64,000 bases of DNA from an uncultured delta proteobacterium (GCA_963767925.1 CAVYGB010000009.1:256214-320213); one strand, 5' to 3'. Shown: positions 2,518 through 57,739, counted from the stretch's first letter. The notes: generated by a model from the sequence alone, not told the origin. Program-made: numbers and translations.

Positions 2518-3750
2518 TCAGCGGTCGGCGGTGCGGACGGCGGCCGAGCCGCCGGCGAGGGGGATGTGGATGCCGGGGTCGAGCAGCTCGGTGCCGGTCC
2601 ACTCGAGCACCTCGATGCGCTTCTCGGCCATCACGCCGGCCAGGATGTGGCGCCCGTCGGGGGCGAAGGCGGCGCCCTGGGCCCAGCCGCCGATGTTCGC
2701 CTCGGCGGCCTTCCGCAGCGTCTTGCCCTCGACCCGCAAGATGACGAGCTTGCTGTTCGGCGACTTGTAGGCGAAGTCGGCCGGCTTGTTGCTGCCGTTC
2801 TGGACCACCGCCGCCACCACGCTGCTGTCGGGCGAGACCTTCACCCCCTCGGTCGAGATTCCGACCGTGACCGTGTTGACCACCCGGGGGGGCGACGTCT
2901 CGAGGTCGATCAGGCTGACGGTGTCGAGGTCGCCGAGGCCGAAGCCCAGGTTGCCGACCACCGCGAACCGGCCGTTGGGGGCGATGTCGATCGAGTAGGG
3001 TTTGAGGCCGGCATAGAAGTCTCGGGTGGCGGTCACGGTGGTCCCGTCGATGGCCAGCAGCGTGAGGCGGTGGTCGGCGTCGTTGGTGACGATGGCCAGC
3101 TTGCCGTCGGGGCTGATGGCGACGTGGGCGGCCTGGGGCTTCTGGTCGGGCTTGGCCGGATCGGAGACCACCACCTTGCCGACCGGGGTGACGGTCTGGC
3201 CGTCGATGGTGAGGATCGAGACGGTGCCCTCGGCCCGGTTGGCGACCAGGGCCAGCTTGCCGTCGCGGCTGATGGAGACGCCGGAGGGCTGCTTGCCCCC
3301 CTGCACGGTGGCCAGCACCCGGGGCGGCATGGCCCGCAGGTCGATGACCGTGATGCGGTCGTCGGGGATCAGCCGGGAGGCGTCGAGCGGATCGACCTTC
3401 ATCGGTGAGGTGACGAGGGCCAGGCTCTCGTCGGGGGCGATGGCCACGCTGGTGGGTGGGCCCTGCACGCTCCCCGGCACCTCCAGCTCGGCCGCCAGCC
3501 GGGGGGGCGAGACGCTGAGGTCGATCAGGCTGATGGTGTCCGGCCGGGGGGTCGCGGCGACCCGGACCACGCCCGCTTCGAGGTAGTTCTTGTTGTCGTT
3601 GGTGCTGATCGCCCAGCGGACCGCACCACCGGCCGGAGCGCCCGCGCCGTCGGCGTCGGCCCGGCGGCAGCCGAGCCAGGCGCCGGCGGCCACCAGCGCA
3701 CCGAGGCCGAGCACGACGAGGCCGTTTTTCGAGAGCGTTGCGGTCATCAT
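2518..3750 (-). CDS. Exported YncE/YVTN-like beta-propeller protein
   Basis: Hydrophobic leader ending WLGC; repeated (V/I)AI(S/A)PDG-x-x-A-(L/I)-V blade motifs. Confidence 0.8.
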   Translation of the reverse strand: MMTATLSKNGLVVLGLGALVAAGAWLGCRRADADGAGAPAGGAVRWAISTNDNKNYLEAGVVRVAATPRPDTISLIDLSVSPPRLAAELEVPGSVQGPPTSVAIAPDESLALVTSPMKVDPLDASRLIPDDRITVIDLRAMPPRVLATVQGGKQPSGVSISRDGKLALVANRAEGTVSILTIDGQTVTPVGKVVVSDPAKPDQKPQAAHVAISPDGKLAIVTNDADHRLTLLAIDGTTVTATRDFYAGLKPYSIDIAPNGRFAVVGNLGFGLGDLDTVSLIDLETSPPRVVNTVTVGISTEGVKVSPDSSVVAAVVQNGSNKPADFAYKSPNSKLVILRVEGKTLRKAAEANIGGWAQGAAFAPDGRHILAGVMAEKRIEVLEWTGTELLDPGIHIPLAGGSAAVRTADR

Positions 3751-3891
3751 GGGGAGCTCCTTCCTTCCGGGTCTTCCGCGCGAGGTCGGCATATTACTCT
3801 CCCGACCGAAAACGCGAAATGCCGTCGCGCGGCCGCCGGGTCAGGCCCTGCGGGGTGGTCCCCGGGCGGAACATCTGCGACGATCGAGGCA

Positions 3892-4689
3892 ATGTCCGAC
3901 GCGAAGCCGCCCTCCGACGATCCGCCGCTCACGGTGCCCGGGACCGGGCTGACCTACGGGAGCTACCTGCGGCTCGACGAGCTGCTGGCCTTGCAACAGC
4001 TCCGCAGCAGCCCCCAGGAGCACGACGAGATGCTGTTCATCGTGATCCATCAGGTCTACGAGCTGTGGTTCAAGCAGGTGCTGCACGAGCTGGATCGGCT
4101 GGAGGCCAGCTTCGCCGCTGGACAGACCGGCGCCGCGCTGGGGACCTTCAAGCGCATCCTCACCATCCTCAAGACCCTCGTCGCGCAGGTCGACGTGCTC
4201 GAGACCATGACCCCCATCGAGTTCGGGTCGTTCCGCACCCGCCTCGAGTCGGCCAGCGGCTTCCAGTCGCAGCAGTTTCGCTTGATCGAGGTGCGGCTGG
4301 GCAAGCGCGACCCCCGCCTGCTGGCTTACCTCGACCACCCCGGCGGCGACCAGCAGGCCAAGCAGCGGCTGGGCGCGGCCCTGGCCCAGCCCAGCCTGTA
4401 CGCCCGCTTCCTGCAGTTCCTGGTCAGCCGGGGCGCGGCGCTGGGAGATGATCCCCGGCCCGGCCTGATCGACATCTACCGCCGGCAGCCCGACCTGGCG
4501 GTCGTCTGCGAGCGCATGGTCGACCTCGACGAGGGGCTGCTCGAGTGGCGCTACCGCCACGTCAAGATGGTCGAGCGCACCATCGGCCTCAAGCCGGGCA
4601 CGGGCGGCTCGGCCGGCGCCGGCTACCTGCGCACCACCCTGGCCGAGCCGCTGTTCCCCGACCTGTGGTCCATCCGCAGCGAGCTGTGA
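3892..4689 (+). CDS. kynA: Tryptophan 2,3-dioxygenase
   Basis: YGSYLRLDELL, HDEMLFIVIHQVYELWFK, SGFQS, WRYRHVKMVERTIG, GTGGS. Confidence 0.95.
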   Translation: MSDAKPPSDDPPLTVPGTGLTYGSYLRLDELLALQQLRSSPQEHDEMLFIVIHQVYELWFKQVLHELDRLEASFAAGQTGAALGTFKRILTILKTLVAQVDVLETMTPIEFGSFRTRLESASGFQSQQFRLIEVRLGKRDPRLLAYLDHPGGDQQAKQRLGAALAQPSLYARFLQFLVSRGAALGDDPRPGLIDIYRRQPDLAVVCERMVDLDEGLLEWRYRHVKMVERTIGLKPGTGGSAGAGYLRTTLAEPLFPDLWSIRSEL

Positions 4690-4697
4690 CGGCGGCG

Positions 4698-5900
4698 ATG
4701 TACACGCTCGCCCAGCTCCGCGCAAACCCCAGCCCGCTGGCCGCGGCCTACCGGCGCTTCCGGGTGGCCGAGCGGCTGCTGCTGACCGGACACTCGCACC
4801 AGGCCTGGCCGGACGTGGCCCGCGAGGGGCTGCTGCAAGCCTTCGACGACGCCGCCGGTGAGGTGGATGAAAAATGGGCGCGCGCGTTCGAGCGGGCCGA
4901 CCTGGTGCGCGCCGGCTTCCGGCGCTTGCTCGACGATCCCGGCGGGCACATCGCCCTGGCGGCGAGCAGCCACGACGCCCTGGTGCGGTTCCTGTCGGCC
5001 TTGCCCCTGCGGCAGCGGCCCGCGCTGCTGACCACCGACGGCGAGTTCCACTCCCTGCGCCGCCAGCTCGCCCGCCTGGCCGAAGAGGGCGTGGAGGTCA
5101 CCCGGGTCCCGGCGCTGCCCGCGGCGACCCTGGTCGAGCGGATGATCCACAACCTGCAAACCCGGGCCGACCGCACCGCCGCCGTGATGCTCTCGACGGT
5201 GCTGTTCTCGCGGGGACACCTCGTCCCCGGGCTGACCGCGCTGCAGGAGGCCTGCGACGCCGCCGGGGTGGCCCTGCTGCTCGACGCCTACCACCACCTC
5301 GGCGTGGTCCCGTTCTCCGTCGCGCGCGAGCGCCTGCACAACGCCTTCATCACCGGCGGGGGCTACAAATATTGCCAGCTCGGGGAGGGCAACTGCTTCC
5401 TGCGCTTCCCCGCGGGCTCGAGCCTGCGCCCGGTGGTCACGGGCTGGTTCGCCGAGTTCCAGCTCCTGCCGAGCGCGCAAGCCGGCGGAGCGGTGGCCTA
5501 TCCCGAAGGCCCCGATCGCTTCGCCGGCGCCACCTACGACCCGAGCAGCCACTACCGGGCGGCGGCGGTGTTCGACTTCTCCGCCCGGCAGGGCCTCGAG
5601 GTCCCGCTCCTGCGCCAGGTCAGCCAGCACCAGGTCGGCCGTCTGGCCGCCGGCTTCGACGCCCTCACGCTCGACCCGGCGGTGATCCGCCGCGATCCTT
5701 CGGTCGCCCTGTCCGACCTCGGCGGCTTCCTGGCGCTCGAGACGCCGCGGGCCGCCGACCTGCTGGCCGGCCTGCGCGCCCGCGGTGTCCTTGCCGACGC
5801 GCGCGGCGACTTGCTGCGCCTGGGCCCCGCCCCCTACCTCTGCGACGACCAGCTCGACGCCGCCCTGCAGGCCCTCGCCGAGGCCGCCCGGGCACCGTAG
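4698..5900 (+). CDS. kynU: Kynureninase (PLP-dependent, class V fold)
   Basis: GHSHQAWP, EFHS, LDAYH, GGYKY(C)QLGEG, TGWF, RLGPAPY; directly follows kynA. Confidence 0.9.
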   Translation: MYTLAQLRANPSPLAAAYRRFRVAERLLLTGHSHQAWPDVAREGLLQAFDDAAGEVDEKWARAFERADLVRAGFRRLLDDPGGHIALAASSHDALVRFLSALPLRQRPALLTTDGEFHSLRRQLARLAEEGVEVTRVPALPAATLVERMIHNLQTRADRTAAVMLSTVLFSRGHLVPGLTALQEACDAAGVALLLDAYHHLGVVPFSVARERLHNAFITGGGYKYCQLGEGNCFLRFPAGSSLRPVVTGWFAEFQLLPSAQAGGAVAYPEGPDRFAGATYDPSSHYRAAAVFDFSARQGLEVPLLRQVSQHQVGRLAAGFDALTLDPAVIRRDPSVALSDLGGFLALETPRAADLLAGLRARGVLADARGDLLRLGPAPYLCDDQLDAALQALAEAARAP

Positions 5901-6617: not shown

Positions 6618-11145
<4,528 letters not shown>

Positions 11146-11206: not shown

Positions 11207-14200
11207 ATGGGTGGAGGTGGTGCGCGAGGTCGGTGGCTCTCGGGCTGCGTGCTGGCCCTGCTGGCGGCGTACAGCGCGCCCGCCCAGGCGGTGCCGATGG
11301 AGCTGGTCCATCGCGGCTACCTGCAGGACGCGGACGACGCCCCGGTCAGCGGGACGTTGACCTTCAGCTACCGGTTGTACGTCAACGCCTCCGACGTGAC
11401 GCCGCTGTGGGAGGACACCTTCGCGGTTGTCGTCACCGCCGGCGACTACGAGGTCTCCCTGGGCAGCCAGGTGCCGCTGACGGCGGCGCTGTTCTCGCAG
11501 CCGCTGTTCCTCGAGGTGACGATCGAGGACGACACCCTGACCCCGCGGACCCAGCTCACCTCGGTCCCCTACGCCATCGCCGCTGGCACCGTGGAAAATG
11601 CCACCGGCGACATCACGCCGAGGAGCGTCTCGGTTGGCGGGCAGACCGTCGTCGATCAGCTGGGCATCTGGCGAGGCAGCGCCGACGGTCTGCGGGGACC
11701 GGCCGGTCCCACCGGCGCCACCGGACCGCTGGGTCCGGCGGGCGCGCCGGGCACCCTCGGTGATTCGGGCCCCGCGGGGCCGACCGGGGCGACGGGCGCC
11801 ACCGGGGTGATCGGCGCCGCGGGCGCGACCGGCGCCGCCGGAGAGGCGGGGGCGACCGGCCCCGCCGGGTTGACCTGGCAGGGGCCCTTCTCGGCGGTCG
11901 TGCTCTACGGCGCTGACGACGTTGTGTCGAGCGGGGGCTCGTCGTACCGCTGCCTGAGCGCGAGCGCCTGCGCGGGGCAGGCCCCGCCCGAAGGTGGCAA
12001 CGCGGACTGGCAGGTGCTGGCTGCCGCGGGGGCGCCGGGTCCGACCGGGACGCCCGGCGCGCAGGGCCCGGTCGGTCCGGCCGGGGTGAGCGGCGAGCGG
12101 GGTTCGACCGGCCCGGCCGGAGCAGCGGGTGAGCCCGGGGCCGCGGGCCTGACCGGTCCGATCGGACCGCAGGGCCCGACCGGTCTGGCGGGCGTCGACG
12201 GAGAGTCGGGCGCCATCGGCGCGCGCGGCGCCACCGGGCCCCAGGGCCCGCCGGGGGCCACCTGGCGCGGACCCTTCAGCGCGGTGACGGGTTACGAGAA
12301 GGACGACCTCGTCCGCGCCGGCGGCGCGAGCTACCTCGCCCGGCGCGCGGTCGAGCCCAGCCCGACGCCACCGACCGAGGGCGAGGACTGGGCGCTGCTC
12401 GTCGCGGCGGGCGCGGAGGGGGCGACGGGGGCGACAGGTCCCGCCGGCGCCGTCGGCGAGTCCGGTCCGCCGGGAGCCGCCGGACTGACCGGTCCGGCTG
12501 GTGCGCTGGGGGCCACCGGCGCGACGGGCGCGACCGGCGCCACCGGTCCGGCGGGCGCCGCGGGCGCGATCGGACCCATCGGAGCGCAGGGCGCCGCCGG
12601 TGCGCAAGGCGCGATCGGTCCGACGGGCGCGACAGGTTCGATCGGCGCGAGCGGCGCGCTGGGGGCCACCGGTCCGGTCGGCGCCACCTGGCGGGGATCG
12701 TTCAGCGCGGTCGTGAGCTACGAGGCGAACGACGTCGTCCTCTCGGACGGATCGAGCTACCTCGCCCGGCGCTCGGTCGAGGCGAGCGCGACGCCGCCCG
12801 CGGTCGGCGCCGACTGGAACCTGCTCGCCCAGGCCGGCGCGGCCGGCGGCACCGGTCCGACCGGCGCGACAGGCGCACGAGGTGAGACCGGTCCCGAGGG
12901 CGCCACCGGCGCGACCGGCGCGGTCGGAGTCGAGGGTGCGGCTGGCGCCACCGGTCCGACGGGCGCGACCGGCGCGGTCGGGGCCGAAGGCGCGGTGGGG
13001 GCCAAAGGTCCCCTGGGCGCAACCGGGGCGGTCGGGCCCGCGGGTGAGCTGGGTGCCACCGGTCCGGCAGGTGCGACCGGAGCGGCTGGCCCCGCCGGTG
13101 AGCTGGGTGCTACCGGACCGGCGGGTGCAACCGGGGCAGCCGGGCCCGCCGGCGCCACCGGGGCGACGGGCGCGACGGGCGCGATCGGCTCCGCGGGCGC
13201 AACCGGCGCCGTCGGTGCGACCTGGCAAGGGCCGTGGCGCGCCGGGATCAGCTACGCCGAACGCGACATCGTCAGCTCCGGAGGTTCGAGCTACCTCGCC
13301 CGGCGCTCGGTCGAGGCGAGCGCGACGCCTCCCGCGGTGGGCGCCGACTGGGCGTTGATCGCCCCGGCCGGGGCGAACGGCGCCGCGGGCGCGGAGGGTC
13401 CGGCCGGCGAGCCGGGTGCTCCGGGTGTTGCCGGCTCAAAGGGTCCGGCCGGCGCACCGGGGGCCATCGGGCCGACTGGCGCCACCGGCCCCGCCGGTGA
13501 GCCGGGTGAAACCGGCCCCGCCGGCCCCGCCGGCGAGGTGGGTCCCGCGGGCATACCGGGCGCGGTCGGACCGCCGGGAGAGACCGGCGCCTCCGGATCC
13601 GCGGGCGCACCGGGGGCACCGGGCGCCGTCGGGCCCACCGGCGCCACCGGCCCCGCCGGCGCGACCGGCGCGCCAGGCGCCACGGGCGCGACCGCGCGCT
13701 GGCGCGGCGCCTGGAGCGAGGCGCTCGGCTACGACCAGCACGACGTCGTCAGCTCCGAGGGCTCGAGCTACATCGCCCGGCGCTCGGTCCCGGCCAGCCC
13801 GACGCCGCCCTTCGTGGGCGACGACTGGGCCCTTGTCGCGCTGGCCGGCTCGCCCGGTGCGCGCGGCGCGCTCGGTACGGCCGGTGCGCGCGGCGAGACG
13901 GGCGCGATCGGCCCCACCGGCGCGCCGGGTGCCCCCGGATCGGCCGGTCCGCCCGGCGCCCCCGGTCCCGCCGGCCCGACCGGCGCCCCTGGACCGGCTG
14001 GCCCCCCGGGCGCCCTCGGCCCCCCGGGCGCACCCGGCGCGCCTGGATTGACCGGCCCGACCGGATCGCCCGGTGCCACCGGGCCGACCGGCGCCACCGG
14101 CGCGCCAGGTCCGGCGGGGGCCGCCGGCGCCACCGGCGCGACCGGCGCGGCCGGGGCCGTGCGGGCGACCTGGCTGGGCGCCTTCAGCGCCGTGATCAAC

Positions 14201-14965
14201 TACCAGCCGGACGACATCGTCCGCTCGGCGGGCGCGAGCTTCCTCGCCCTGCGCGCGGTCGCCGCCAGCGCGACCCCGCCAGCCCCCGGCGCCGACTGGG
14301 ACGTGATCGCCGCCGCCGGGGCCGCGGGCGCGCCCGGCGCCGCCGGCGCCACCGGAGCCACGGGCCCGACCGGAGCCACGGGCCCGACCGGAGCCACGGG
14401 CCCGACCGGAGCCACGGGCGCCGATGGCATCGCGGGCGCGACCGGCGTCGCGGGCCCCATCGGGCCGACCGGCGCGAACGGCGCGATGGGTGCGATCGGG
14501 GCGACCGGCGCGACGGGCCCCACCGGCACGGCAGGCCCGCGGGGGGCCACCGGGGCGACGGGCGCGACGGGCCCCTCGGGACCCCAGATCGGCGCCGTCT
14601 TCGCGATGAGGGGCTCCATCTCGACCAGCCCGAATCCGGTGCTGGTCAATCCGGCGACCGGAACGGTGGGCACGGTCCTCACCGCACTCGACGCGAAGAT
14701 GATGTCGGTCTGCACCGTGCAGGCGTTCTTCGTCAACAGCAAGAACGCCGGCGGGGTCCAGCCCATCGTTGTCACCCTGATGAAAAACGGAGCGGCGACG
14801 GCGGTCACCTGCAGCTTGAACACGTCGACGCTCAGTGAAGGCGTGAACTGTTCGGACACCACCAACACCGCGTCGTTCACGATGGAAGACCGGGTCTCCC
14901 TGCAACACCAGTTCACCGGCACGGCCGTCTCCCACTCCCTCGGGTGGGGAATCGTCTGCAACTAG
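11207..14965 (+). CDS. Secreted collagen-like fibre protein, chain A
   Basis: Signal peptide ending APAQA|VP; conserved N-domain (ELxHxGYL...LWxDTF...LGSQ...[10 protein letters not shown]); 7 Gly-X-Y segments; 6 W-x-G-x-(F/W)...Y-x-x-x-D-x-V...DW modules; ~125-aa head ending CN*. Confidence 0.93.
13034..13141. repeat. Imperfect 54-bp tandem duplication inside the chain A collagen segment
   Basis: [18 protein letters not shown] encoded twice (13034-13087, 13088-13141). Confidence 0.8.
14351..14419. repeat. Perfect 18-bp tandem repeat, about 3.8 copies, inside chain A
   Basis: ACCGGAGCCACGGGCCCG at 14351, 14369 and 14387, partial copy at 14405. Confidence 0.9.
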
Positions 14966-14994
14966 GGCCAGCGGCGATGTCGAGGAGGAATCTG

Positions 14995-17900
14995 ATGGGT
15001 GGGCGGATGCCGGTTCGAGCCTGCAGTGTCCCCGGCCAGCGGCCGGGCGGCGCCAGAGGAAATGGTAAGAAGCGGGGAGGGCGGCTCTCGGCCTGGGCCG
15101 CGGCGCTGCTGGCGGTCGCGGTCCAGAGCGCGCCGGCGGCGGCCGCGGTGCCGCTCGAGCTCAGCCACCAGGGCTACCTCGAGGACCTCGCCGAGAACCC
15201 GATCAACGGGACCCTCAGCTTCGTGTACCGGCTGTACGCGAGCGAGACCGGCGGGGCGGCGCTGTGGCAGGACACCTTCGCGGTGGCGGTCAGCAACGGC
15301 AACTACGCCGTGACGCTCGGTAGCCAGACCCGGTTGACCGTCGATTTGTTCAAGCAGCCGCTCTTCCTGGAGATCGAGATCGGCGGCGAGGCGCTCAGCC
15401 CGCGCGTCGAGCTGACCTCCGTCCCCTACGCGATCGCCGCGCGCACCAGCGACAACGCGACCGGGGACCTCACGCCGAAGAGCGTGACGGTCGGGGGGCA
15501 GGTGGTGATCGATCCGAGCGGCCGCTGGGTGGGCCCGGCGGCCAACCTGCCGGGACCGGTCGGTCCAACCGGACCGGTGGGCGCGGCGGGCCTGCCGGGG
15601 GAACCCGGCGCGACCGGAGAAGCGGGTCCCGAGGGCCCCGCCGGCGCGCCCGGCGGCGAAGGGGCGATCGGCTCGACCGGCCCCTCGGGGGCGGTGGGCG
15701 CGACCGGGGCCCAGGGTTCGCCCGGGCTGCTGGGGCGCGGGCCGTTCTCGGCGGTCGTGCTCTACCTGATCGACGACGTCGTCACGAGCGGAGGCTCGAC
15801 CTACCTGTGCCGGAGCGCGAGCGCCTGCGCGGGGCAGGCCCCGCCCGAAGGCGGCAACGACGACTGGCACCTGCTGGCGCAGCTCGGGGCGACGGGGGCA
15901 GCCGGGGCGGTGGGGCCGGCCGGCCCCGCGGGACCCGCCGGCGCGCCGGGGGAGCCAGGCGCCACGGGCGCGCCGGGGACGCCGGGGGAAACCGGCGCCA
16001 CGGGCGTGGCGGGGCCGACCGGCCCCGCGGGCGCAGCCGGACCGGCGGGCACACCGGGTGCGACGGGTGCGACGGGCGCGGTCGGCGCGACCGGGCTCCC
16101 GGGCGCGGTGGGCGCGAGCTGGCGTGGACCGTTCAGCGCGGTGCTGGGCTACCAAGCGGGCGACGTCGTCGCCTCCGCCGGGTCGAGCTACATCGCCCGG
16201 CGGGCGGTCGGACCGAGCGCCTCGCCGCCGGCCGAGGGCGAGGACTGGGACCTGGTGGCCCGCGCGGGCGCGACCGGCGCGATCGGCGCGACCGGTGCCA
16301 CCGGCGCGCCAGGCGCCGCGGGCCCCGTCGGCGCCACCGGAGCGGAAGGCCCGGGCGGCGCGACGGGCGCCGAAGGTGCGGTCGGACCGACGGGACCGGG
16401 TGGCCCTGCGGGCGCCACCGGTGAGCCCGGCGCGACAGGTCCGGAGGGCGCCGCGGGCGCGATCGGCGCGGTCGGGGCGACGGGGGCCACCGGGGCGACG
16501 GGCGCGATCGGAGCGACGGGGCCCCAGGGCGCGGTGGGCGCGAGCTGGCAGGGCGCCTGGAGCGCGGTGATGGGGTACGAGGCGGGCGACGTTGTTCGGT
16601 CGGACGGGTCGAGCTTCCTCGCCCGGCGCGCGGTCGAGGCAGGCGCCACGCCGCCCGCGCCGGGTGCCGACTGGGACGTCCTGGCAGAGGCCGGCGCGAC
16701 GGGCGCCGAGGGGCCCGCTGGCGCGACGGGCGCGCCCGGGGAGGTGGGGCCCACGGGCGCCACCGGCGCCACCGGCGCGACGGGCGCCCTGGGTGCGACA
16801 GGCGCCGAGGGCGCGGTGGGGCCCGCCGGCGCCACCGGTGAGCCCGGCGCGACGGGGCCGGAAGGCCCGGTGGGCGCGACCGGTCCGGCTGGCCCGGCCG
16901 GCGCGCCGGGCGCCGAGGGGCCCGCCGGAGCGAGGGGGGCTGCTGGGCCCGCCGGCGCGACCGGTGCGGTGGGGGCGACGGGCGCGACGGGTGCCGAGGG
17001 TCCCGCCGGTGCGACAGGCGCCGAAGGTCCGGCTGGCCCGGCCGGCGCGGCGGGCGCGATCGGACCGGTGGGGGCGGCCGCGCGGGGACCGTGGAGCGCG
17101 GTGACCGCCTACGACCCCGGCGAAGTCGTCGGCTTTCAGGGCTCGAGCTTCGTGGCTCGGCGGTCGATCGAAGCGAGCGGCACGCCGCCTGCGACCGGGC
17201 CCGACTGGGACCTCGTGGCGGCAGCGGGTGCGCCGGGCGCGACAGGCGCGGCGGGTCCCGGGGGTGCGCAGGGGACTCCCGGCGCGACCGGACCGATCGG
17301 TCCTACGGGCGAGCCAGGCGCGGCGGGCGCCGAAGGCGCCGCCGGCCCCGCTGGCGCGCGAGGACCCACCGGGCCGACGGGCGCGACCGGGGCCGCCGGT
17401 CCTGCTGGTGCGCCGGGCGCAGCCGGTGTGGCGGGTGAGCCGGGCGCCACCGGTCCGACGGGCGCCACCGGTCCGACGGGAGACGCCGGTCCGACCGGTC
17501 CCCCGGGCGCGCCGGGCGGCCCCGGACCGGCGGGCGCGACGGGCGTGGGCCTGCGCTGGGTCGGCGCCTGGAGCGCGGTTGTCGGCTTCGTCGAGGACGA
17601 CGTCGTGCGCTCGGGCGGATCGAGCTACGTCGCCCGCCGGGCGGTCGCGCCGAGCGCGACGCCACCGGCGGTGGGCGCGGACTGGGACCTGATCGCCCAG
17701 CAGGGCGCGCGGGGGCCGACGGGACAGATCGGATCGACGGGCGTGCCCGGGGCAACTGGCGAACCCGGTCCGACCGGGCCTGCTGGCGCGACGGGCGCCG
17801 TCGGTGCGACCGGAACCGCTGGCCCGCCCGGCGCGGCGGGCGTGGCGGGGCCGCCCGGCGCGACAGGTGAGTCCGGTGCCGCGGGCGCAGCCGGTGTGGC

Positions 17901-18840
17901 AGGTGAGCCCGGCGCGCCGGGACCGATCGGTCCGCCCGGCGCGACCGGCGCGCCAGGTCCTGCGGGCGAACCCGGCGCGACCGGCGCGCCGGGTTCGCCC
18001 GGCGCCGACGAGACGCTGGGGATGCGCTGGCAGAGCACCTGGACCGCGGTCGTCAGCTACGACGCGGGCGACATAGTCCACGCGGGCGGATCCAGCTACC
18101 TCGCCCGGCGCGCGGTCGCGGCCAGCGCCACCGCGCCCGCGGTGGGGGACGACTGGGATCTCCTCGCCGCGGGAGGCGCGGCGGGTGCGGCCGGCGCGGC
18201 CGGAACCCCGGGCGCCACCGGTCCGGCGGGCGCCACCGGTCCGGCGGGGGCCACGGGGCCGACCGGTGCGACGGGCGCGTCGGGCGCAGCCGGCCTCGCG
18301 GGGGCCATCGGCGCGACGGGAGCCACCGGGTCGATCGGCGCTACCGGCGCGCGCGGGCCGACCGGATTTACGGGTGGCACCGGGGCAGTGGGCGCGACCG
18401 GGCCGATCGGCGCGACCGGGGCCACCGGGACGGCGGGCGGTTCGGGGGCCGCCCTCCTCATCATGGGGCGGGCAAACGGCCTCTCCCTGACGCCCGACAA
18501 CTATTCCCTCTACCTCAATCCGGTGACCGGGGCGCCCTCCTCGTATTACGGCACCGATGTGCTCATGCCGAGAACGTGCCTGATCCGGAGGATGCACGCC
18601 CGGGTCATCAACCCCTCCCAGAGCGGGACCGTCGTCATCGCGATGTCCAGACCCCCGATCATCGGTCCCATCGGGTGCACGATGACCATGGTGGCCGGGC
18701 AGACCACAACCTGCTCGGCCGACATCTCCGTCACCAACGGGAACTTCACGGCCGGCCACACCACCTCCGTACGGGTCGTGGTCAGCGGCACGACCGGGGC
18801 AACGACGCTCAGCGTGCTCTGGGCGGCGGCTTGCGACTAG
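14995..18840 (+). CDS. Secreted collagen-like fibre protein, chain B
   Basis: GAGGAGG RBS before ATG 14995; signal ending APAAAA|VP; same architecture as chain A; head ends CD*. Confidence 0.93.
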
Positions 18841-18857
18841 CGCCACCGGGGGACGTC

Positions 18858-21800
18858 ATGGGTGGAAAGTCGGGAAGTGACGCTGGGAAGCACGGGTCCT
18901 CGGCAAAACGTGGGGCGGAAACCATGAAACGGTGCGGACGGCGGGGGCAGAAGATCGCGGGCTGGGCGGCGGCGCTCGTGGCCCTGGCGTTTCAGAGCGC
19001 GCCGGCGGGGGCGGTGCCCCTCGAGCTGATCCACGAGGGCTATCTCGTGGACGGCAGCAACACCCCGGTCAGCGGGAGCGTGACCATCGACTACCGGCTG
19101 TTCGCCAGCCCCTCGGGCGGGACGGCGCTGTGGTCGGACACCTTCGCGGTCGCGGTCGAGGCCGGGGCCTACGTCGTGCTCCTCGGCAGCCAGACGCCGC
19201 TGACCGCCGAGCTGTTCAGTCAGCACCTGTTCGTCGAGGTGACGATCGGCGGCGACACGCTCGAGCCGCGCACGCAGCTCACCTCCGTCCCCTTCGCCAT
19301 CGCCGCGGGCACCGCCGAGAACGCGACCGGCGACCTGACGCCGAGGAGCGTGGCGGTGGGCGGCCAGGTGGTCATCGACCGCATGGGCCGCTGGGTGGGC
19401 TCGTCGGAGGGCGTGGTCGGGCCCGAAGGTCCGGCGGGCGCGGCGGGGCCGATGGGACCGCCGGGGCAAACCGGCGACGCCGGGGAGATCGGCCCGGCCG
19501 GCCCGACCGGCGCGGTGGGCCCGACCGGCGCCCAGGGAGCGATCGGTCCCACCGGCGCGGTGGGCGCGACCGGGACCACCGGCCGGGTCGGGCTGCGGTG
19601 GCAAGGGCCGTATTCGTCGGTGATCCAGTACGGGATCGACGACGTCGTCTCGGAGGCGGGCGCGTCGTTCGTGTGCCGGAGCGCGAGCGCCTGCGCGGGC
19701 CAGGCGCCCCCGGAGGCGGGCAACGCCGAGTGGCACCTGCTGGCCGCGCTCGGAGCCACCGGAGCCACCGGGCCGACCGGCGTCGCTGGCCCGGCCGGTC
19801 CTGCGGGCGCCGCGGGCGAGCCTGGCGCGACGGGGGCGGCCGGCCCGCCCGGTGAGCCCGGCGCGATCGGCGCGGCCGGTCCGATCGGGCTGGAGGGCGC
19901 GGCCGGTCCCGCGGGCGACAGCGGCGCGACCGGTGCGACGGGGGCCGCCGGCGAGGCCGGTGCGGCGGGGCGCCCGGGGCTGCGCTGGCAGGGATGGTGG
20001 AGCGCGGTGGTCAACTACGAAGTCGACGACGTTGTCGGCTCGGGCGGCTCGAGCTACCTCGCCCGGCAGACGGTCGCGGCCAGCGCCATCCCTCCGGGCG
20101 AGCGGGAAGACTGGGAGCTGCTGGCCGGGGCGGGCGCGAGCGGCCCGACCGGCCCGACCGGCCAGCCCGGCGCGACCGGCGCAACCGGACCGGCGGGTGA
20201 GCCCGGCGCGCCCGGGGCTCCCGGTGCGGTCGGCGCGACTGGCGCGACGGGCGCAACCGGCGCGGCAGGTCCGGAAGGGGCGACCGGCGCCACCGGTCCC
20301 GCGGGCCTCCCGGGAATCCCCGGCGCCGAGGGCGCGGTGGGGCCGGAGGGCGCGACCGGCGCGACCGGGGCCGTCGGGGCCACCGGTGTCACCGGCGCGC
20401 TGGGCTTCCGGTGGCAGGGGCCCTGGAGCGCAGTGGTCGGCTACGAGCCGAACGAGGTCGTCGGCTCCGGCGGCGCGAGCTTCGTGGCCCGGCGGCCGGT
20501 CGCGGCGAGCGCGACCCCACCCGTGGCTGGCGACGACTGGGACCTCGTCGCGCCAGGCGGTGCAACCGGGGCGACGGGCGCGACCGGAGCGACCGGTCCG
20601 GCCGGCGCGCTGGGCGCTGAGGGTGCGGTCGGCGCGGTCGGCGCGACCGGTCCCCAGGGTGAGACCGGCGCTGAGGGTGCGACCGGCGCACCGGGTGCAG
20701 CGGGCCCGGCCGGCGCCACCGGCGCACAGGGTCTCATCGGCGAGACGGGCCCGGCTGGCCCGATCGGCGAGACCGGCGCGACAGGTCCCGCGGGCGCGAC
20801 CGGCGCGGTCGGCCCCGCCGGGGCGACGGGCGCCAGCGGTCCGACCGGCCCGACCGGCCCGACCGGCGCGGAAGGCCAGGTGGGCGCCACCGGCTCTCCG
20901 GGCGCGCCCGGTGCAGCGGGCGCGACCGGCCCGGCCGGGGCCACCTGGCAGGGCGCCTGGAGCGCGGTCGTCGAATACGTCGCCAGCGACATCGTCGAAT
21001 CGGGCGGCGCGAGCTTCGTGGCCCGGCGGCTCGTCGCGCCGAGCGCCACGCTGCCGGCGGTGGGTGCCGACTGGTATCTCGTCGCGCAGGCCGGTCAGGC
21101 CGGGGAGACCGGTCCCACCGGTCCCGGCGGATCGACGGGCGAGCCGGGGGCCACCGGCGAGGCCGGCCCGCCAGGTGAATCCGGCGCCACCGGCGCACCG
21201 GGCGCGCAGGGTCCGGCAGGCCCGCTGGGCGCCACCGGGTCGTCCGGCATTCCGGGTGAGACCGGCCCCGCGGGTGAACCGGGCGCGACGGGCCCCGCCG
21301 GGGCGACCGGTCCCACGGGCCCCGCGGGTGCGTTCGGCGCGGCCGGCCCCGCGGGTGCACCCGGCGAGACGGGTCCGCCCGGCGCGACCGGGCCCACCGG
21401 GGCGACCGGCCGCTCGGCGCGCTGGCAAGGCGCCTGGAGCGCGGTCGTCAACTACGAGGCCGAGGACATCGTTGGCTCGGCCGGCTCGAGCTATATCGCC
21501 CGGCGCGCGGTCGCGGCCAGCGCGACGCCGCCGGCCGAGGGCGACGACTGGGACGTCGTCGCGGAGACCGGGGCCGCCGGCAACGCAGGCGCGATCGGCC
21601 CGGCCGGCGCGCCGGGTGAAACTGGCCCCGCCGGTCCGGCGGGGCTCGCGGGGACCACCGGGCCTACCGGCGCGGCGGGTGAACCGGGGCCAGCGGGCGC
21701 GACCGGCGCCACCGGTCCGGCCGGCGCGACGGGTGGGCAAGGGCCCCCGGGTGCGGCCGGTCTTGCGGGGCCGACCGGCGAGCCGGGCGCCAGCGGGCCG

Positions 21801-22679
21801 ACGGGTCCGGCCGGCGCCACCGGTCTGGCAGGAGGCAACGGTCCCGCGGGCGCCGCCGGGGCGGCAGGTGTCCCCGGGACGCTGGCCGCGAGCTGGCGCG
21901 GGGCCTGGAACGCCCTCACCGCCTACGAACCGAACCACGTCGTCCACTCGGAGGGCGGAAGCTTTCTCGCTCGGCGGGCGGTCGCGGCCAGCGGGGTGGC
22001 GCCGGTCGAGGGCGCCGACTGGGCCCTGCTCGTCCAGGGGGGCGCGGCCGGGGTGGCGGGTCCCCCCGGTGCGGCAGGCGCCGCTGGCCCCGCCGGCGCG
22101 GCGGGGGCAACCGGCCCGGCGGGCAGCGCCGGACCGGCCGGCGCCAGCGGGGTCGCCGGGGTCAACGGAGCCCAGGGCGCCACCGGGGCGACCGGGCCCG
22201 CCGGCGGCGGCGGCCCGGCGGGCCCCACCGGGGTTCAAGGCGCAACCGGGCCGACCGGAGCCACGGGCGCGACGGGGTTCACCGGGGCGACCGGCATCGG
22301 CGGACCGCGCGTGATCAACCTGGCGGGTCGCTCGATCTCGTTCTCCGGCACTACCTATTACAACCTGAGGTCCGGGGTCCCCACCCGGACGGGCCCGGAG
22401 CTGGTCGAGATGCTCATGCCGCGCGCCTGCACGGTCAAAGCCCTGCACATCGAGATTCGTGCCGCCTCCGCCTTCACCAGCGGCACGTACACCGTGCTCA
22501 AGAACGGCCTGGCCACCAGCATGGCCTGCGTCATCACCAACGTGGCGGCAACTGCCTACGGTTCTTGCTCCGACACGACAAACACCATCCCGTTTGCGGA
22601 GCTCGACACGATCGCCCTGCAGAGCGTGACCGGAGGATCCTCCGCCCCCAGCGTGTTTCACTCGATCCAGTGCCATTGA
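18858..22679 (+). CDS. Secreted collagen-like fibre protein, chain C
   Basis: ATG 17 bp after the chain B stop; signal ending APAGA|VP; same architecture; head ends CH*. Confidence 0.93.
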
Positions 22680-22758
22680 AGCTGGGTCGCGGGGTTTCAT
22701 GAATATCGGGACATGTCGTTGCCCGTGCGACCGCGCGTACAACCAGGACGCATTCTGA

Positions 22759-22803
22759 TTTTTCCAGATGGGATTCCTGGGCTTCTGAAGGACGTGTTTA
22801 AAT
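22759..22803 (+). promoter_or_regulatory. Promoter-like motif, copy 2 (upstream of lipoprotein-FKBP)
   Basis: TTTTT-N6-GGGATTCC-N12-GGACGTGTTTAAAT. Confidence 0.5.
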
Positions 22804-22840
22804 GAGGTTCTCGTTCGACGGTGAAGGGGAGGGAGGCGTG

Positions 22841-23137
22841 ATGGGTGCAGGTGTTGTGACCCGAGCGGCGCGCGCGCTGGTGGTGCTGGCGTTCTTCGCG
22901 ACCGGCTGCCCCGACCAGTGGGAGCCGCCCATCCTCAAGCCCGGTCCGGGGAACCCGCCGGTCGAGCAGCCGCCCGACCCCCTGGGTGAGGGGTTCCGGA
23001 CGACGGGCCCGGGCACCCAGCGCAGCTCGGCCCTGGTCAACGAGGGCACGATGTCGGCGGTCAAGGTGACCGAGCAGCGCGGCCGGCGGTATCGGACCAA
23101 GTCGAGCTTCCGGGTCAAGCGCACGGTCGTGCCCTGA
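22841..23137 (+). CDS. Small lipoprotein of unknown function
   Basis: GGGAGG RBS; leader LVVLAFFATG|C; Pro-rich linker; basic beta-like tail YRTKSSFRVKRTVVP. Confidence 0.75.
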   Translation: MGAGVVTRAARALVVLAFFATGCPDQWEPPILKPGPGNPPVEQPPDPLGEGFRTTGPGTQRSSALVNEGTMSAVKVTEQRGRRYRTKSSFRVKRTVVP

Positions 23138-23212
23138 GGGCGCGCGCGGCCGGTCTGAAGATGGTGGGGCGATGCCCCTGGATGAATGACGACGAAGAGG
23201 GAGGGTGACGCG

Positions 23213-23839
23213 ATGGAGGTCCGAACCTGGTTGGGGCGAGCAGCGATTGTCGGGGCGGCTTTGCTGCTGTCCGCCTGTGACAGCGGAAAGAGCGACGACA
23301 ACAGCCAGCGGCCCGATCCGGCCAAGCCCGGCGCCTCACCGGCGACCAGCCTCGGCGCGCCCGAAGACGTGGCCGCTCCCCCGGCCGGCGCCGAGACGAG
23401 CGCCTCCGGCCTGGCCTGGAAGATCCTGCAACCCGGCACCGGCAAGGAGCACCCCGGGATGAACGACTTCGTCGAGGTCCACTACACGGGCTGGACCCCG
23501 CAGGGCAAGATGTTCGACTCGAGCGTGGCCCGCGGCGAGACCACCCGGTTTCCGCTCGGGCGGGTCATCAAGGGCTGGACCGAGGGCCTGCAGCTCATGA
23601 CCGTCGGTGAAAAGCGCCGCTTCTGGATCCCCGGCAAGCTGGCCTACGGCGACACCCCCACCCGCCCCGGCACCCTGGCCGGCATGCTGGTGTTCGACGT
23701 CGAGCTGATCTCGTTCCGCGCTCTCCCGCCCCCCGCCGCCGCGCCCACCCTGGTCCCCGCGAGCGACACAACCAGCCCCCGCCTCAAGACCGAGAAGGCG
23801 CGAGGCAAGAGCCCGGCCAGCGAGTCCAGCAAGCGCTGA
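23213..23839 (+). CDS. FKBP-type peptidyl-prolyl cis-trans isomerase, lipoprotein
   Basis: Lipobox LLSA|C; VEVHYTGW, FDSS, VIKGWTEGLQLM, RRFWIPGKLAYG, LVFDVEL. Confidence 0.95.
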   Translation: MEVRTWLGRAAIVGAALLLSACDSGKSDDNSQRPDPAKPGASPATSLGAPEDVAAPPAGAETSASGLAWKILQPGTGKEHPGMNDFVEVHYTGWTPQGKMFDSSVARGETTRFPLGRVIKGWTEGLQLMTVGEKRRFWIPGKLAYGDTPTRPGTLAGMLVFDVELISFRALPPPAAAPTLVPASDTTSPRLKTEKARGKSPASESSKR

Positions 23840-24016
23840 CCGGCGCGATCACCTGGCGGGTCCAACCATGAACCTGCTCGCTCGATCCCGCAGCGCCCGC
23901 GGCGCGGGCGCTCCTCCCCGCACGGCCCTCACCCGAGCCGCCCGGGGACAGCGTCGCCCGTCGCCACCAGTGCGGGCTCGGTTCGACGTTGCCCACGGGC
24001 GGCTGGGGGGCTCTCG

Positions 24017-26212
24017 ATGACCCTCCGCGAGCGCTTCAGCCGCGCCTGGCGGGACGGGGTCGCCCGGCTCCGCCCGCTGGGCGCTACAATCGCTTCCCGG
24101 GCGGCGGCGCGGCTCGATCGCGCCTGGCGGGGGGCGATCGCCTCGCTCGGCGCCGTCGTGATCGCCCTGCTGGCCGTGATCGCCTACGTCGATGCCACCC
24201 GCGGCGCCTTTCACTTCGACGACAGCCACGCCGTCGAGGAGAACCCCGCCATCCGCTCGCTGGCCAACGTGGGGCGCTTCTTCGTCGATCCCACCGCGTT
24301 TTCGGTGTTGCCGCAAAACACGGGGTACCGGCCGGTGTTGCTGGTGTCTTTCGCCCTCAACGCGCAGATCGGGGGGGTCAGCCCGGCGGCCTTCCTGGCG
24401 GGAAACCTGCTGGTGCACCTGCTGTGCGCCCTGCTCCTGCACGCGCTGATCAAGGGGCTGGCCCGGCGGCTGGGTCGACCGGACGCCGGCGCGCTGGCCT
24501 TCGTGGCGGCGGCGATCTTCGCCGTGCATCCGCTGTTCTCCGAGTGTGTCAACTACGTCTCGGCCCGCTCCGAGAGCCTCTCGTCGACCCTGGGCGTGGC
24601 CGCCCTGCTGGCCTGGCTGCGGGGCCGCGAAGATCGCCGCTGGCTGGCGGCCGCCGCGATCTCCCTGCTGGCCGCCATGTTGACCAAGCCGGTCGTGATC
24701 ACCCTGCCGGTCTTCGCCGGCCTGATCCTGTGGGCCATCCCCGGCGAGCGCAGCGCCCGTCCCGCCCGCACCGTCGAGCGGCTGGCCTGGCTGGCCGTCC
24801 CCGCCGCCGCCGGCGCCGCCCTGGTCCTGTACATGACCCCGCCGATCGCGATCGCCTCGGCCTCCGGCTTCGATCGCTGGACGTATCTGCGCTCGCAGCT
24901 CCCGGCGACGCTGCACTACCTGCGCCTGTTCGTCTGGCCGGTCGGCCAGAGCGCCGACGCCGACTACCCGGCGATGACCTCCTTCGCCCAGCCGGAGGTC
25001 TGGCTCTCCGCGCTCGTGCTGCTCACCGTGGCCGGCTGGACCGTCTGGGCGCTGGCCACCCGGCGCCGCCCCGGCGTGGCCCTGGCCGTGTGCTGGTTCT
25101 TCCTCTGCCTGGCCGTCACCGCGCTGTTCCCCCTGGCCGAGATCGTCAACGAGCACCGCCCCTACCTGGCCGCCGCCAGCCTCTGCGTCCTGGCCGCCCA
25201 CGCCCTCCGCCGCCTCCCGACGCTGCTATTCGGAACCCCCGCCGCAACCGCGGGTCCCCCCGCCCATGACCCCGCGATCATCACCTCCGCCGCCGATGAA
25301 CCCGCCCCCTCCGTCGTCTCTCCCTCCGAAATCTCCGACTACGGCGTCTCCGCCACCGCCTCTCCCACCGCCTCTCCCTCCGTCGTCTCAGCCTCGCCGA
25401 CGGACTCCTCGGATGTCTCCGGCTCGCCGGAGGTTGCCCCGCGCGCCCCCGTCTGGGCCGCCCTCGTCCCCTCCGTCGAGGCCAGGATTGCCTTCGCCCG
25501 CTCCCTCGCCGCCGTCCGGGCGGCAACCCCGGCCGTTGTCGCCGTCGCGGCGGTGCTGGCCGTGCTCGGCACCCTCACCGTGTCGCGCAACCGCGTCTGG
25601 GAGAACCCCGCGACCTTGTGGCAAGACGTCGTCGCCAAGGCCCCCCTCTCGCCCCGGGCCCACATGAACTACGGCCTGGCGCTCATGAACCGCGGCAACC
25701 GCCAGGCCGCCGAAGCCCACCTGCGCGAAGCCGTCCGCCTGTCCCCGACCTACAGCTACGCCCGCATCAACCTCGGAAGCTGGCTGATGGCCGGCGGCTC
25801 CCTGAAGGAAGCCGCCGCCGAGCTGGACCTCGCCATCGCCCTCGACCCGCAGCTCTTCTACGGCCACTACTTCCGCGGCCGCGTCGCCACCCTCCTCTCC
25901 GAGCCCCCCTCCGAACGCGCCCGTCACCTCGGCGCCGCGGTTGCCCTCAGCCCCAGCTACGCCGACGCCTGGTACCAGCTCGCCCTGGCCCGCGACGCCG
26001 CCGGCGACCACCCCGGCACCATCGAAGCCGCCGCCCGCGCCGCCGCTCTCCGCGGAACCTACGAAGACCGCTTCCTCCACGGCTACGCCCTCCTGCAAGC
26101 CCGCCAGGTCACCGCCGCCATGGCCGTCCTCAACGCCCTCGCCCGCGAGCGCCCCGACGACCACCGCGTGAGCTACAACCTCAGCTACGCCGCCCGCCTC
26201 CTCGCCCCCTGA
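24017..26212 (+). CDS. TMTC-like GT-C membrane glycosyltransferase with C-terminal TPRs
   Basis: FDD-x-x-AV-x-x-N, YRP, N-x-x-x-H, FAVHP-x-x-x-E-x-V-x-Y-x-x-x-R-x-E, EHRPYL and RN-x-x-W motifs; multiple TM helices; TPR tail. Confidence 0.85.
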   Translation: MTLRERFSRAWRDGVARLRPLGATIASRAAARLDRAWRGAIASLGAVVIALLAVIAYVDATRGAFHFDDSHAVEENPAIRSLANVGRFFVDPTAFSVLPQNTGYRPVLLVSFALNAQIGGVSPAAFLAGNLLVHLLCALLLHALIKGLARRLGRPDAGALAFVAAAIFAVHPLFSECVNYVSARSESLSSTLGVAALLAWLRGREDRRWLAAAAISLLAAMLTKPVVITLPVFAGLILWAIPGERSARPARTVERLAWLAVPAAAGAALVLYMTPPIAIASASGFDRWTYLRSQLPATLHYLRLFVWPVGQSADADYPAMTSFAQPEVWLSALVLLTVAGWTVWALATRRRPGVALAVCWFFLCLAVTALFPLAEIVNEHRPYLAAASLCVLAAHALRRLPTLLFGTPAATAGPPAHDPAIITSAADEPAPSVVSPSEISDYGVSATASPTASPSVVSASPTDSSDVSGSPEVAPRAPVWAALVPSVEARIAFARSLAAVRAATPAVVAVAAVLAVLGTLTVSRNRVWENPATLWQDVVAKAPLSPRAHMNYGLALMNRGNRQAAEAHLREAVRLSPTYSYARINLGSWLMAGGSLKEAAAELDLAIALDPQLFYGHYFRGRVATLLSEPPSERARHLGAAVALSPSYADAWYQLALARDAAGDHPGTIEAAARAAALRGTYEDRFLHGYALLQARQVTAAMAVLNALARERPDDHRVSYNLSYAARLLAP

Positions 26213-55386: not shown

Positions 55387-56325
55387 TTGCGGGTTTCCCG
55401 ACGAAACGAAGAGTATGATGGACGATCGAGGCTGGTGTTCTTCCACCCGATCCTCCAAGTGGCTGCCGGCCTACATCCGCCCTGTCCGTCACCGTTTCTT
55501 GAGGTTCGCGTCCACCGGTTGGAGGCGACACCGGGTCTTACCGCCTTGTGTGCTGGGTACGAGCAGGGTGCGTGGCGGCACGAACAGTTGGCCTCCCACG
55601 CAATGGAATGGCTCCCGGAGTTCGCGCTTAGGTTCAGCGAATTGGAGGGCCTCGGTCCTCAAAACGCTGTGAGGCTCATAGCGCGTGCCGCACGATCGAT
55701 CTACTCCTCACCAAAGTACGCGCGGCGCGGAGAGATGGGGGAGATTCTTCTGCACGCGGCGCTTCGACAGGTATTTGCGACCCTTCCGGCCGTCGCCAAA
55801 GTATTTTTCAAGGACAGCAGTAACGACACGGTAAAGGGCTTCGATGCCGTCCACGTCGTCCCGTCGGGCGCAGAGTTAGAATTGTGGCTCGGAGAGGTCA
55901 AGTTCTACGCAAACATCCAAGCGGCCATCTCTGACGTAGTAGCGGAATTATGCGCTCACACCGGCCGCGACTACCTACGCGGCGAGTTCGCCGCCATAAC
56001 GAACAAGATAGACGACCGTTGGCCTCATGCGGAGAGACTGAAGAAGTTACTTCACGAAGGAACATCACTGGATGAGGTGTTCTCGCGAATCTGCATCCCG
56101 GTGCTTCTGACGTATGAGAGCCCTACGATCGCATCACACACAGAAGTAACAACGGCGTTTGTCCAAGCATACAACGCAGAAGTAACTGCTCATCACGGCA
56201 AGTTCTCCTCGGCGGCCCTTCCCGGAAAAGTACGAATCCATCTCTTCCTAGTGCCAATCAGAAGCAAAGATGACCTTGTTGCGGCTTTCGACAAGCGGCT
56301 TAAGAGCGCACAGGCATTGACGTGA
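55387..56325 (+). CDS. hamA: DUF1837 protein (Hachiman HamA-like nuclease); true start probably downstream
   Basis: WLPEFAL, GEMGEILLH, K-x-F-x-K-x-S-x-ND-x-VKGFDAVH, ELWLGEVKFY; lower GC than flanks. Confidence 0.8.
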   Translation: MRVSRRNEEYDGRSRLVFFHPILQVAAGLHPPCPSPFLEVRVHRLEATPGLTALCAGYEQGAWRHEQLASHAMEWLPEFALRFSELEGLGPQNAVRLIARAARSIYSSPKYARRGEMGEILLHAALRQVFATLPAVAKVFFKDSSNDTVKGFDAVHVVPSGAELELWLGEVKFYANIQAAISDVVAELCAHTGRDYLRGEFAAITNKIDDRWPHAERLKKLLHEGTSLDEVFSRICIPVLLTYESPTIASHTEVTTAFVQAYNAEVTAHHGKFSSAALPGKVRIHLFLVPIRSKDDLVAAFDKRLKSAQALT

Positions 56326-57676: not shown

Positions 57677-57689
57677 AGGCGACGCGGCC

Positions 57690-57735: not shown

Positions 57736-57739
57736 GAAC

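Follow-up and report, generated by a model that had tools for sequence, protein, structure and literature searches.

The collagen-like fibre of BclA is glycosylated, and in animals the folding of collagen in the endoplasmic reticulum (ER) is assisted by FKBP65 and cyclophilin B. To our knowledge, bacterial collagens contain no hydroxyproline, and little is known of how their long triple helices gain stability and mature once outside the cytoplasm. A study of 2000 by Bann, Peyton and Bächinger is said to have reported that glycosylated threonine stabilises the collagen of a deep-sea worm. Here we describe a locus of an uncultured delta proteobacterium that combines three collagen-like genes with a gene for a TMTC-like membrane glycosyltransferase, in a 64,000-nucleotide stretch of DNA (GCA_963767925.1, CAVYGB010000009.1:256214-320213), the whole of which is called the window below. 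The motifs listed for TMTC enzymes are a Lys, a YRP-containing motif and, in their first external loop, an Asp-Asp (DD) pair; prokaryotic homologs of these enzymes exist (PMC7801869). The nearest precedents for the present locus are BclA3 with its neighbouring glycosyltransferase SgtA, and TfpW for pilin. Literature searches returned no paper linking a GT-C or TMTC-like enzyme to bacterial collagen-like proteins. The pairing of the two recurs in many bacterial phyla, which suggests that the fibres may be sugar-coated outside the cytoplasm.

The locus consists of six plus-strand genes at 11207-26212, and translation of open reading frames (ORFs) in the window returned the same coordinates as the preliminary description. 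They encode three collagen-like chains, colA (11207..14965), colB (14977..18840) and colC (18858..22679), a small predicted lipoprotein of 111 aa (22802..23137), an FKBP-type peptidyl-prolyl isomerase of 217 aa that is also a predicted lipoprotein (23186..23839), and the TMTC-like glycosyltransferase of 731 aa (24017..26212), referred to as P0007. That all six are co-oriented and carry export signals or transmembrane (TM) helices was confirmed from coordinates, translation, Pfam matches and the G+C content of third codon positions (GC3), which was 0.85-0.92 in all six frames and matched that of other genes in the window.

The TMTC-like transferase and its collagen neighbours

DNA was fetched around relatives of P0007, yielding 77 species-genome loci and 71 metagenome loci; the two sets share some DNA (L063 and L182, for example, are the same). 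All six frames of the flanks were searched for runs of 8 or more Gly-X-Y triplets, and a locus was called unlinked when it had at least 5 kb on both sides and no such run. A collagen-like ORF was present in the flanks of 25 genome loci and absent from another 25, and the flanks of the remaining 27 were too short; for the metagenome loci the corresponding numbers were 14, 8 and 49. At 19 of the 25 positive genome loci, the transferase lay within 3 kb of the Gly-X-Y run. As a background, the same pattern was found at 11 loci in the 9.34-Mb host genome, equal to ~2.4% per 20 kb or ~2 expected among 77, and the excess of collagen neighbours over this background was more than 10-fold, in several phyla. 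Pfam Collagen occurred in 1-5 places per 4-7 Mb in five linked genomes, and in two of the five checked (G041 and G045) the sole collagen gene was the neighbour of the transferase. P0007 itself was single-copy in the host genome with this query, and three of the few collagen genes of that genome adjoin its only P0007-type gene.

The positive loci were counted in six phyla other than that of the host, among them Acidobacteriota (Thermoanaerobaculia and others), Gemmatimonadota, Pseudomonadota (Burkholderiales and a metagenome-assembled genome of Acidithiobacillales), Verrucomicrobiota (Chthoniobacterales) and several Bacteroidota, to which a Myxococcota relative (G039) is added. The Bacteroidota part of the link is weaker, with three cases 8-9 kb apart. 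On a FastTree phylogeny of 74 transferases the linkage label was clustered, requiring 16 changes where shuffling gave a mean of 21.7, a number as low being reached in 1 of 500 shuffles; one clade comprised 10 collagen-linked loci, 1 unlinked locus and 4 undetermined ones.

In the two nearest orthologs (L125 and L126, 53% identity), a collagen gene on the same strand ends about 150 bp upstream of the transferase, with nothing between. Its product carries a signal peptide, CBM-like modules and a C-terminal domain, and its N-terminal domain (N-domain) matched that of colA in BLASTP at E 1e-4. In L128, a relative with 55% identity, the Gly-rich ORF upstream is interrupted, and the flank of L127 was too short. 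A similar N-domain homology to colA in the Bacteroidota locus L083 was considered and set aside, as its E value of 0.013 was insufficient. Directly downstream of the transferase in L125 is a GT2-GtrA fusion gene, and such fusions are the kind of enzyme that makes polyprenyl-phosphate (lipid-linked) sugar donors; GT2 genes also adjoin the transferase in L055, L059, L061, L065, L143 and others. The C-terminal head family of the three chains was common to transferase-adjacent collagens in L133, L112, L091, L065 and L095. Thr was the commonest Y residue in nearly all of 48 collagen-like ORFs (47 from the fetched flanks and that of G039), with a median of 67%. The recurrent pairing of collagen-like genes with TMTC-like transferases is supported.

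A structural model of P0007 was built with AlphaFold2 from 39 homologs, and conservation was read in a 40-sequence alignment. The model had a mean predicted local distance difference test (pLDDT) score of 88.7 and showed a GT-C-fold membrane domain (residues ~35-405), a single disordered stretch (residues 417-473, pLDDT <50; 25265-25435, plus strand), then another TM helix, and a TPR arm at residues ~531-729 (25607-26203, plus strand) that was recognised both by Pfam TPR matches and by the helices of the model. Foldseek with the full model returned TPR proteins only, and TPR proteins likewise dominated a sequence-based profile search of the PDB. In an exhaustive VIA-align search, residues ~35-555 aligned with GT-C enzymes, namely AglB (3waj; Z 21.0, 315 aligned residues, root-mean-square deviation 4.4), ALG12 (9s6t; Z 19.1, 320 aligned), ArnT (5f15; Z 19.0, 329 aligned), Pmt1-Pmt2 (6p2r; Z 18.1, 354 aligned), STT3 (6s7t; Z 17.6, 339 aligned), Pmt4 (9e61; Z 17.4, 345 aligned) and PglB (5ogl; Z 16.1, 326 aligned). 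The TMTC-like GT-C label of the preliminary description was borne out by these matches.

Six residues of the membrane domain, D68, D69, R105, P106, H171 and K224, were invariant in 40 of 40 aligned homologs. Asp68 and Asp69 (FHFDD; codons at 24218..24223, plus strand) form an acidic pair in the first extracytoplasmic loop and are presumed to be the catalytic or metal site of GT-C enzymes. GYRP, which contains R105 and P106, and LTK, which contains K224, may occupy positions equivalent to the SHKSYRP and KET(Q)xxT motifs of TMTC enzymes. The TPR arm was also well conserved, and is predicted from the Arg/Lys-rich N-terminus and from homology to face the non-cytoplasmic side, the hydropathy count being indecisive. 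The disordered insert, 57 residues rich in Ser, Thr, Pro and Ala, was absent from the closest homologs of ~600 aa; it could itself be a target of glycosylation. Pfam PMT_2 matched 16 of the 40 homologs and PMT matched 3, and DUF1736 (PF08409) was carried by two distant homologs only, according to precomputed Pfam lists. Database names on relatives of P0007 include 'protein O-mannosyl-transferase'. Since P0007 has no PF08409 match, it is termed TMTC-like within the GT-C/PMT clan and not TMTC.

On balance we favour the view, held with moderate confidence, that the locus is a surface-fibre system whose TMTC-like enzyme O-glycosylates the exported chains on Ser/Thr in the periplasm. What the analysis shows are the structures of the genes, the folds, the conserved motifs and the recurrent neighbourhood; we infer the collagens to be the acceptor, and likewise the residue, the sugar, the topology and the assembly of the fibre. 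Sec would export the three collagen-like chains, and the GT-C domain would move sugar from a polyprenyl-phosphate donor to their Ser/Thr residues on the periplasmic side, the Gly-X-Thr triplets being the obvious candidate acceptors. Chains still unfolded or in the course of folding would be bound by the TPR arm, and the heads and nodes would nucleate, then re-nucleate, the triple helix. The N-domain would remain cell-proximal, as proposed for the MAT fibres of Bdellovibrio (PMC10769870).

A number of findings weigh against this assignment. P0007 had no match to Pfam PMT or PMT_2, nor to DUF1736 at E<=0.01. Orientation varied among the linked genome loci, collagen and transferase sharing a strand in 13 and lying on opposite strands in 12, and no collagen was found nearby in 25 of 50 informative genome loci and 8 of 22 metagenome loci. 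The linkage label switches at least 10 times across the enzyme tree, which implies a labile link or one confined to certain collagen-serving subfamilies. In bacterial collagens at large, Thr-rich triplets are frequent, and they occurred also in unlinked collagen loci of the host genome; Thr-richness is therefore not discriminating. Among 40 related Myxococcota genomes, TMTC-like matches occurred in 25, at up to 10 per genome, and collagen matches in 37, and G039 was the only one with a collagen within 4 kb of a TMTC-like gene among the matches listed; three other genes intervene there, and its collagen is Gln-rich, not Thr-rich. A genome of the same genus (G001; 86% complete, 870 contigs) gave no match to the collagen or transferase queries. 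No gene for a donor synthase was found in the window, and the best GT2 match, with 34% identity, was on another contig.

Some of these points favour the alternative that the transferase serves other targets, through general periplasmic protein O-glycosylation or by modifying a glycan or lipid, and that its position beside collagens is incidental. The family is large, and most of its members in related Myxococcota lie away from collagens among the matches listed; moreover, half of the informative genome loci are without collagen, and the GT-C enzymes include lipid A and glycan transferases, with ArnT among the top fold matches. An incidental position is at odds, however, with the more than 10-fold excess over background in several phyla and with the same collagen architecture beside the transferase in the two nearest orthologs and in the present locus, and the TPR arm is typical of protein-directed GT-C enzymes such as TMTC and TfpW. 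We therefore regard other targets as rather unlikely.

If the preferred assignment to collagens holds, the recurrent pairing points to a widespread, unstudied route of protein O-glycosylation in diderm bacteria. It would supply a candidate class of substrates for the prokaryotic TMTC homologs, a large orphan family, and would offer tractable bacterial models for the animal TMTC enzymes. On the same condition, the locus would be a rare case of three register-matched chains, and chain selection in bacterial collagen would become testable.

Two observations were made in the flanks of the nearest orthologs. Upstream of the collagen gene in L126 (L126:1-2280), one ORF has a Cys-His-Ser-Ala repeat tract (…ACHSACHSACHS…) at its end, and a radical-SAM/SPASM-like ORF comes next; the two may correspond to a repeat peptide of the His-Xaa-Ser type and the maturase that acts on it. 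In L125 (L125:4277-5560), the GT2-GtrA gene is followed by two tandem ORFs of ~190 aa with the pattern …FGFNFAPVGWLPCNGQLLPIQQY…NFGLPNLQGR…, presumably similar to phage-tail-collar or MdpB-like proteins.

The collagen-like chains

The three collagen chains named in the preliminary description were recovered by Pfam Collagen with E values of 7e-91 to 6e-82 (6.9e-91 for colA). The product of colA, 1252 aa long, consists of a signal peptide, an N-domain (11291-11680, plus strand, from the segment map), seven Gly-X-Y segments, six modules between them and a C-terminal jelly-roll head (14567-14962, plus strand, from the model and fold matches). Its gene was delimited by translation, Pfam Collagen and CBM_5_12 matches and the segment map, and its paralogs colB and colC by translation, Pfam, the segment map and the alignment of the chains. 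The ORF of colB opens at a GTG at 14944, but the ATG codons at 14977, 14995 and 15007 are its likely start candidates; those of colC are at 18858 and 18924. Signal peptides and lipoboxes were judged by eye, and the three chains have Ala-rich signal peptides (…APAQA|VP, …APAAAA|VP and …APAGA|VP), after which the mature chains begin VP(M/L)EL. The N-domain is ~130 aa and the C-terminal domain ~125 aa in length. In the host genome the N-domain was confined to these three genes, and about four other places passed the Pfam collagen cut-off. The Bdello_MAT_N family (NF053851) matched colB only, and weakly, with 21.8 bits against a cut-off of 60.

The chains are closely matched in length. The Gly-X-Y segments comprise 21, 26, 31, 43, 36, 35 and 30 triplets in colA and colC, and 21, 26, 31, 43, 36, 34 and 31 triplets in colB, giving runs of 21-43 and a total of 222 triplets in each chain, and the first ~890 columns of their alignment are gap-free. 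Identity between chains was 58-67% in the N-domain, 58-62% in the modules, 37-40% at the X and Y positions of the helix and 20-29% in the C-terminal heads. Segment lengths kept so exactly at ~38% X/Y identity speak for a constraint on register or length. Thr was the commonest Y residue, at 73-79 of 222 triplets per chain, and Pro occupied 57-63 of 222 X positions and 27-35 of 222 Y positions (12-16% at Y, vs mostly 0-0.07 in other collagens linked to TMTC-like genes).

Instead of the seven non-collagen modules per chain first counted, the segment map showed six, lying between the seven Gly-X-Y segments. They are 49-55 aa long (49-52 aa in colA) and follow the pattern W.G.[FW]S.V..Y...D.V...G.SY…DW.L.A. 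Over the whole protein, Pfam CBM_5_12 (PF02839) scored 28-53 bits (cut-off 26.2; 52.7 bits summed for colA), no single stretch passing alone. The first module of colA (11876..12028, plus strand; segment map and alignment) is accordingly called CBM5/12-like, and under it is cited a match of one module to the phage tail-fibre family phrog_5073 (E 5.9e-6). Alone among the six, the first module has two conserved Cys in all three chains, and the stretch bearing them is nearly identical across colA, colB and colC, making it a candidate inter-chain disulfide knot.

The head of colA was modelled as a β-sandwich (pLDDT 81.4). Its fold matches to 4-1BBL (Z 8.5), the phage tail fibre 9rkv (Z 8.3), F-BclA (9h38, Z 7.3) and the C-terminal domain of BclA (1wck, Z 7.2) lie in the middling range of the tool, and clearer ones were found in BFVD, where the matched regions are the C-termini of phage and giant-virus proteins with collagen repeats (E 1.8e-9, TMq 0.82). 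A protein search with the C-terminal region of colA gave Gly-X-Y matches only. The model thus points to a resemblance to the trimeric TNF and BclA jelly rolls in fold only. A prophage origin of the fibre genes was rejected, as the genes around them encode an SNF2 helicase and proteins of the kynurenine-pathway, NUDIX, kinase and hydrolase types, and the PHROGs matches were weak and confined to fibre parts. As a separate observation, Thermoanaerobaculia collagens beside the transferase (L053, L058, L121 and L134) have a different C-terminal region, which we assume to resemble the self-cleaving S74 intramolecular-chaperone domain of phage tail spikes; with such S74-like ends, one enzyme clade would pair with fibres of different trimerisation ends.

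The matched lengths would fit an ABC heterotrimer of the three chains or homotrimers of equal length with different heads. Likewise, the divergent heads and conserved N-domains appear to fit equally well three homotrimers with different tips or one C1q-like ABC head. Charge-pair scoring of 27 chain orders over the first five segments did not favour ABC orders, with only 0-6 charged pairs, and complex prediction of the three C-terminal heads scored 0.27 against a mark of 0.32. At the only comparable locus (L133), two tandem collagen paralogs are of unequal length, with 109 and 77 triplets.

The isomerase, the lipoprotein and the genomic setting

The isomerase is a clear FKBP, with an FKBP_C (PF00254) match of 84.3 bits against a cut-off of 21.1 (E 7.6e-24, profile positions 1-94 of 94) and a lipobox …LLSAC|D. 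Against the BamJ, FkpA-like and Mip-like models of NCBIfam it stayed below the cut-offs, with 81.4 vs 100 for BamJ, 83.8 vs 198 for PRK11570 and 79.7 vs 215 for PRK10902. The small lipoprotein (P0005), with the lipobox …FATGC, had no family in profile searches and only unnamed clusters in the ESM Atlas, where recognition was below the usual level.

The preliminary description had gone further and proposed a complete pathway, parallel to that of collagen in the animal ER, in which FKBP folds the chains, the TMTC-like enzyme glycosylates them and the lipoprotein anchors the fibre. In its favour, the six co-oriented genes are separated by short gaps (12-84 bp among the collagen genes, then about 120, 50 and 180 bp), and a scan, itself uninformative, found no terminator-like site between them and no promoter-like site at all. 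Pro at Y is far above that of other linked collagens, which would make isomerisation more limiting, and the isomerase (P0006) is an FKBP copy beyond the conserved tandem pair. The linkage expected in relatives was, however, seen only in part: it stood for the TMTC-like genes with collagen (25/77 against ~2 expected), and failed for FKBP, which phmmer with P0006 found beside the transferase in 1 of 77 genome loci (L055, without collagen) and 0 of 71 metagenome loci, and for the lipoprotein, found in 0 of 148 loci. FKBP homologs with 55-69% identity, mostly in tandem pairs, occurred in 24 of 24 genomes of the family, and none was on a contig with collagen among the matches listed. In the host genome, a tandem FKBP lipoprotein pair is on contig 4 (G000:C4:19770-20597) and a further copy on contig 2; P0006 is an extra, separately located paralog. 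In L125 and L126, moreover, the transferase follows the collagen gene directly. The lipoprotein is an orphan, with no match in 40 related genomes at E<0.001, and nothing supports its role as an anchor. We consider the full pathway quite improbable.

With the FKBP and lipoprotein links unsupported, the conserved module is collagen plus TMTC-like transferase, sometimes with a GT2 donor synthase, and the FKBP appears, from its distribution, to be a local, lineage-specific addition outside that module. The FKBP may nevertheless help prolyl isomerisation of unusually Pro-rich chains, an idea kept alive by the 12-16% Pro at Y here compared with mostly 0-7% in other linked collagens. The most elaborate combination, one ABC heterotrimer fibre with a three-part head, periplasmic Thr O-glycosylation by the TMTC-like enzyme and isomerisation by a recruited FKBP, strikes us as quite improbable, though it would be a convergent bacterial counterpart of collagen biogenesis in the ER. 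We know of no example of a bacterial ABC heterotrimeric collagen fibre, though no search was aimed at one. It is very improbable that P0007 works mainly as a TPR scaffold or chaperone without catalysis, docking or exporting the fibres: its TPR arm is well conserved and its disordered Ser/Thr/Pro insert unusual, but the acidic pair, like other residues of the membrane domain, is invariant in 40 of 40 homologs, which argues for retained catalysis.

The host genome has ~70% G+C. Upstream, an SNF2-family helicase gene (6618-10694, minus strand) diverges from colA; downstream are genes for a NUDIX hydrolase and a Ser/Thr kinase. In G001, the genome of the same genus, orthologs of the SNF2 and NUDIX genes are on separate contigs with other neighbours, and the borders of an island could therefore not be set. 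The divergent neighbour of the SNF2 ortholog there is a PALP-type enzyme gene, and the N-terminal part of the helicase in the window contains a short tandem Pro/Thr/Ala repeat (PARPTTAA ×3). Further away, adjacent genes for tryptophan 2,3-dioxygenase and a kynureninase-like protein (3409-5900, with overlapping frames at 3409-4689 and 4452-5900) represent the kynurenine pathway. G+C falls to 0.59 at 56001-58000, compared with 0.65-0.83 in the rest of the window.

Comparison with described systems

The three chains recall the heterotrimeric collagens of animals and C1q A/B/C, which are likewise built from three paralogous chains with matched helix lengths and interruptions, but charge-pair scoring did not favour ABC here. 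With the animal ER pathway the locus shares a gene for a peptidyl-prolyl isomerase, although the FKBP link is not conserved. The MAT fibres of Bdellovibrio (PMC10769870) are alike in having an invariant cell-proximal N-domain, a trimeric stalk, variable C-terminal tips and a family of paralogs. Their stalks are not collagen, however, a word that the paper never uses, no link to a glycosyltransferase is described in it, and the only match to their N-domain family is the sub-threshold one of colB.

BclA of Bacillus and BclA3 of Clostridioides difficile resemble colA, colB and colC as collagen-like fibres with Thr-rich triplets and a C-terminal jelly-roll head, although the fold match between the colA head and the BclA C-terminal domain is only middling. 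In C. difficile the glycosyltransferase gene SgtA adjoins the collagen gene, as here (PMC7157674). SgtA is a soluble cytoplasmic enzyme of a Gram-positive spore former, whereas the present enzyme is a GT-C membrane protein that would act after export in a diderm. TfpW of Pseudomonas aeruginosa (10.1101/2020.04.19.049825) is, like the enzyme proposed here, a bacterial membrane glycosyltransferase acting on the subunit of a secreted fibre; its substrate is a type IV pilin, to which it adds D-arabinofuranose oligomers, and the likeness drawn here is one of description.

The metazoan enzymes TMTC1-4 differ from P0007 in having the DUF1736 (PF08409) loop between TM7 and TM8, for which P0007 gave no match. 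P0007 in turn has the extra disordered insert and TM helix before the TPRs, and would work in the bacterial periplasm on collagen Gly-X-Thr triplets, not on cadherin domains. The general plan is nevertheless the same: an N-terminal multi-pass GT-C domain is followed by a TPR arm, predicted to be non-cytoplasmic in P0007, and a strictly conserved DD is common to both, while the YRP-containing motif in the same loop and the later TM-proximal Lys of the TMTC enzymes (PMC7801869) have putative counterparts in P0007. As in TMTC1-4, a lipid-phosphate sugar donor is expected for P0007.

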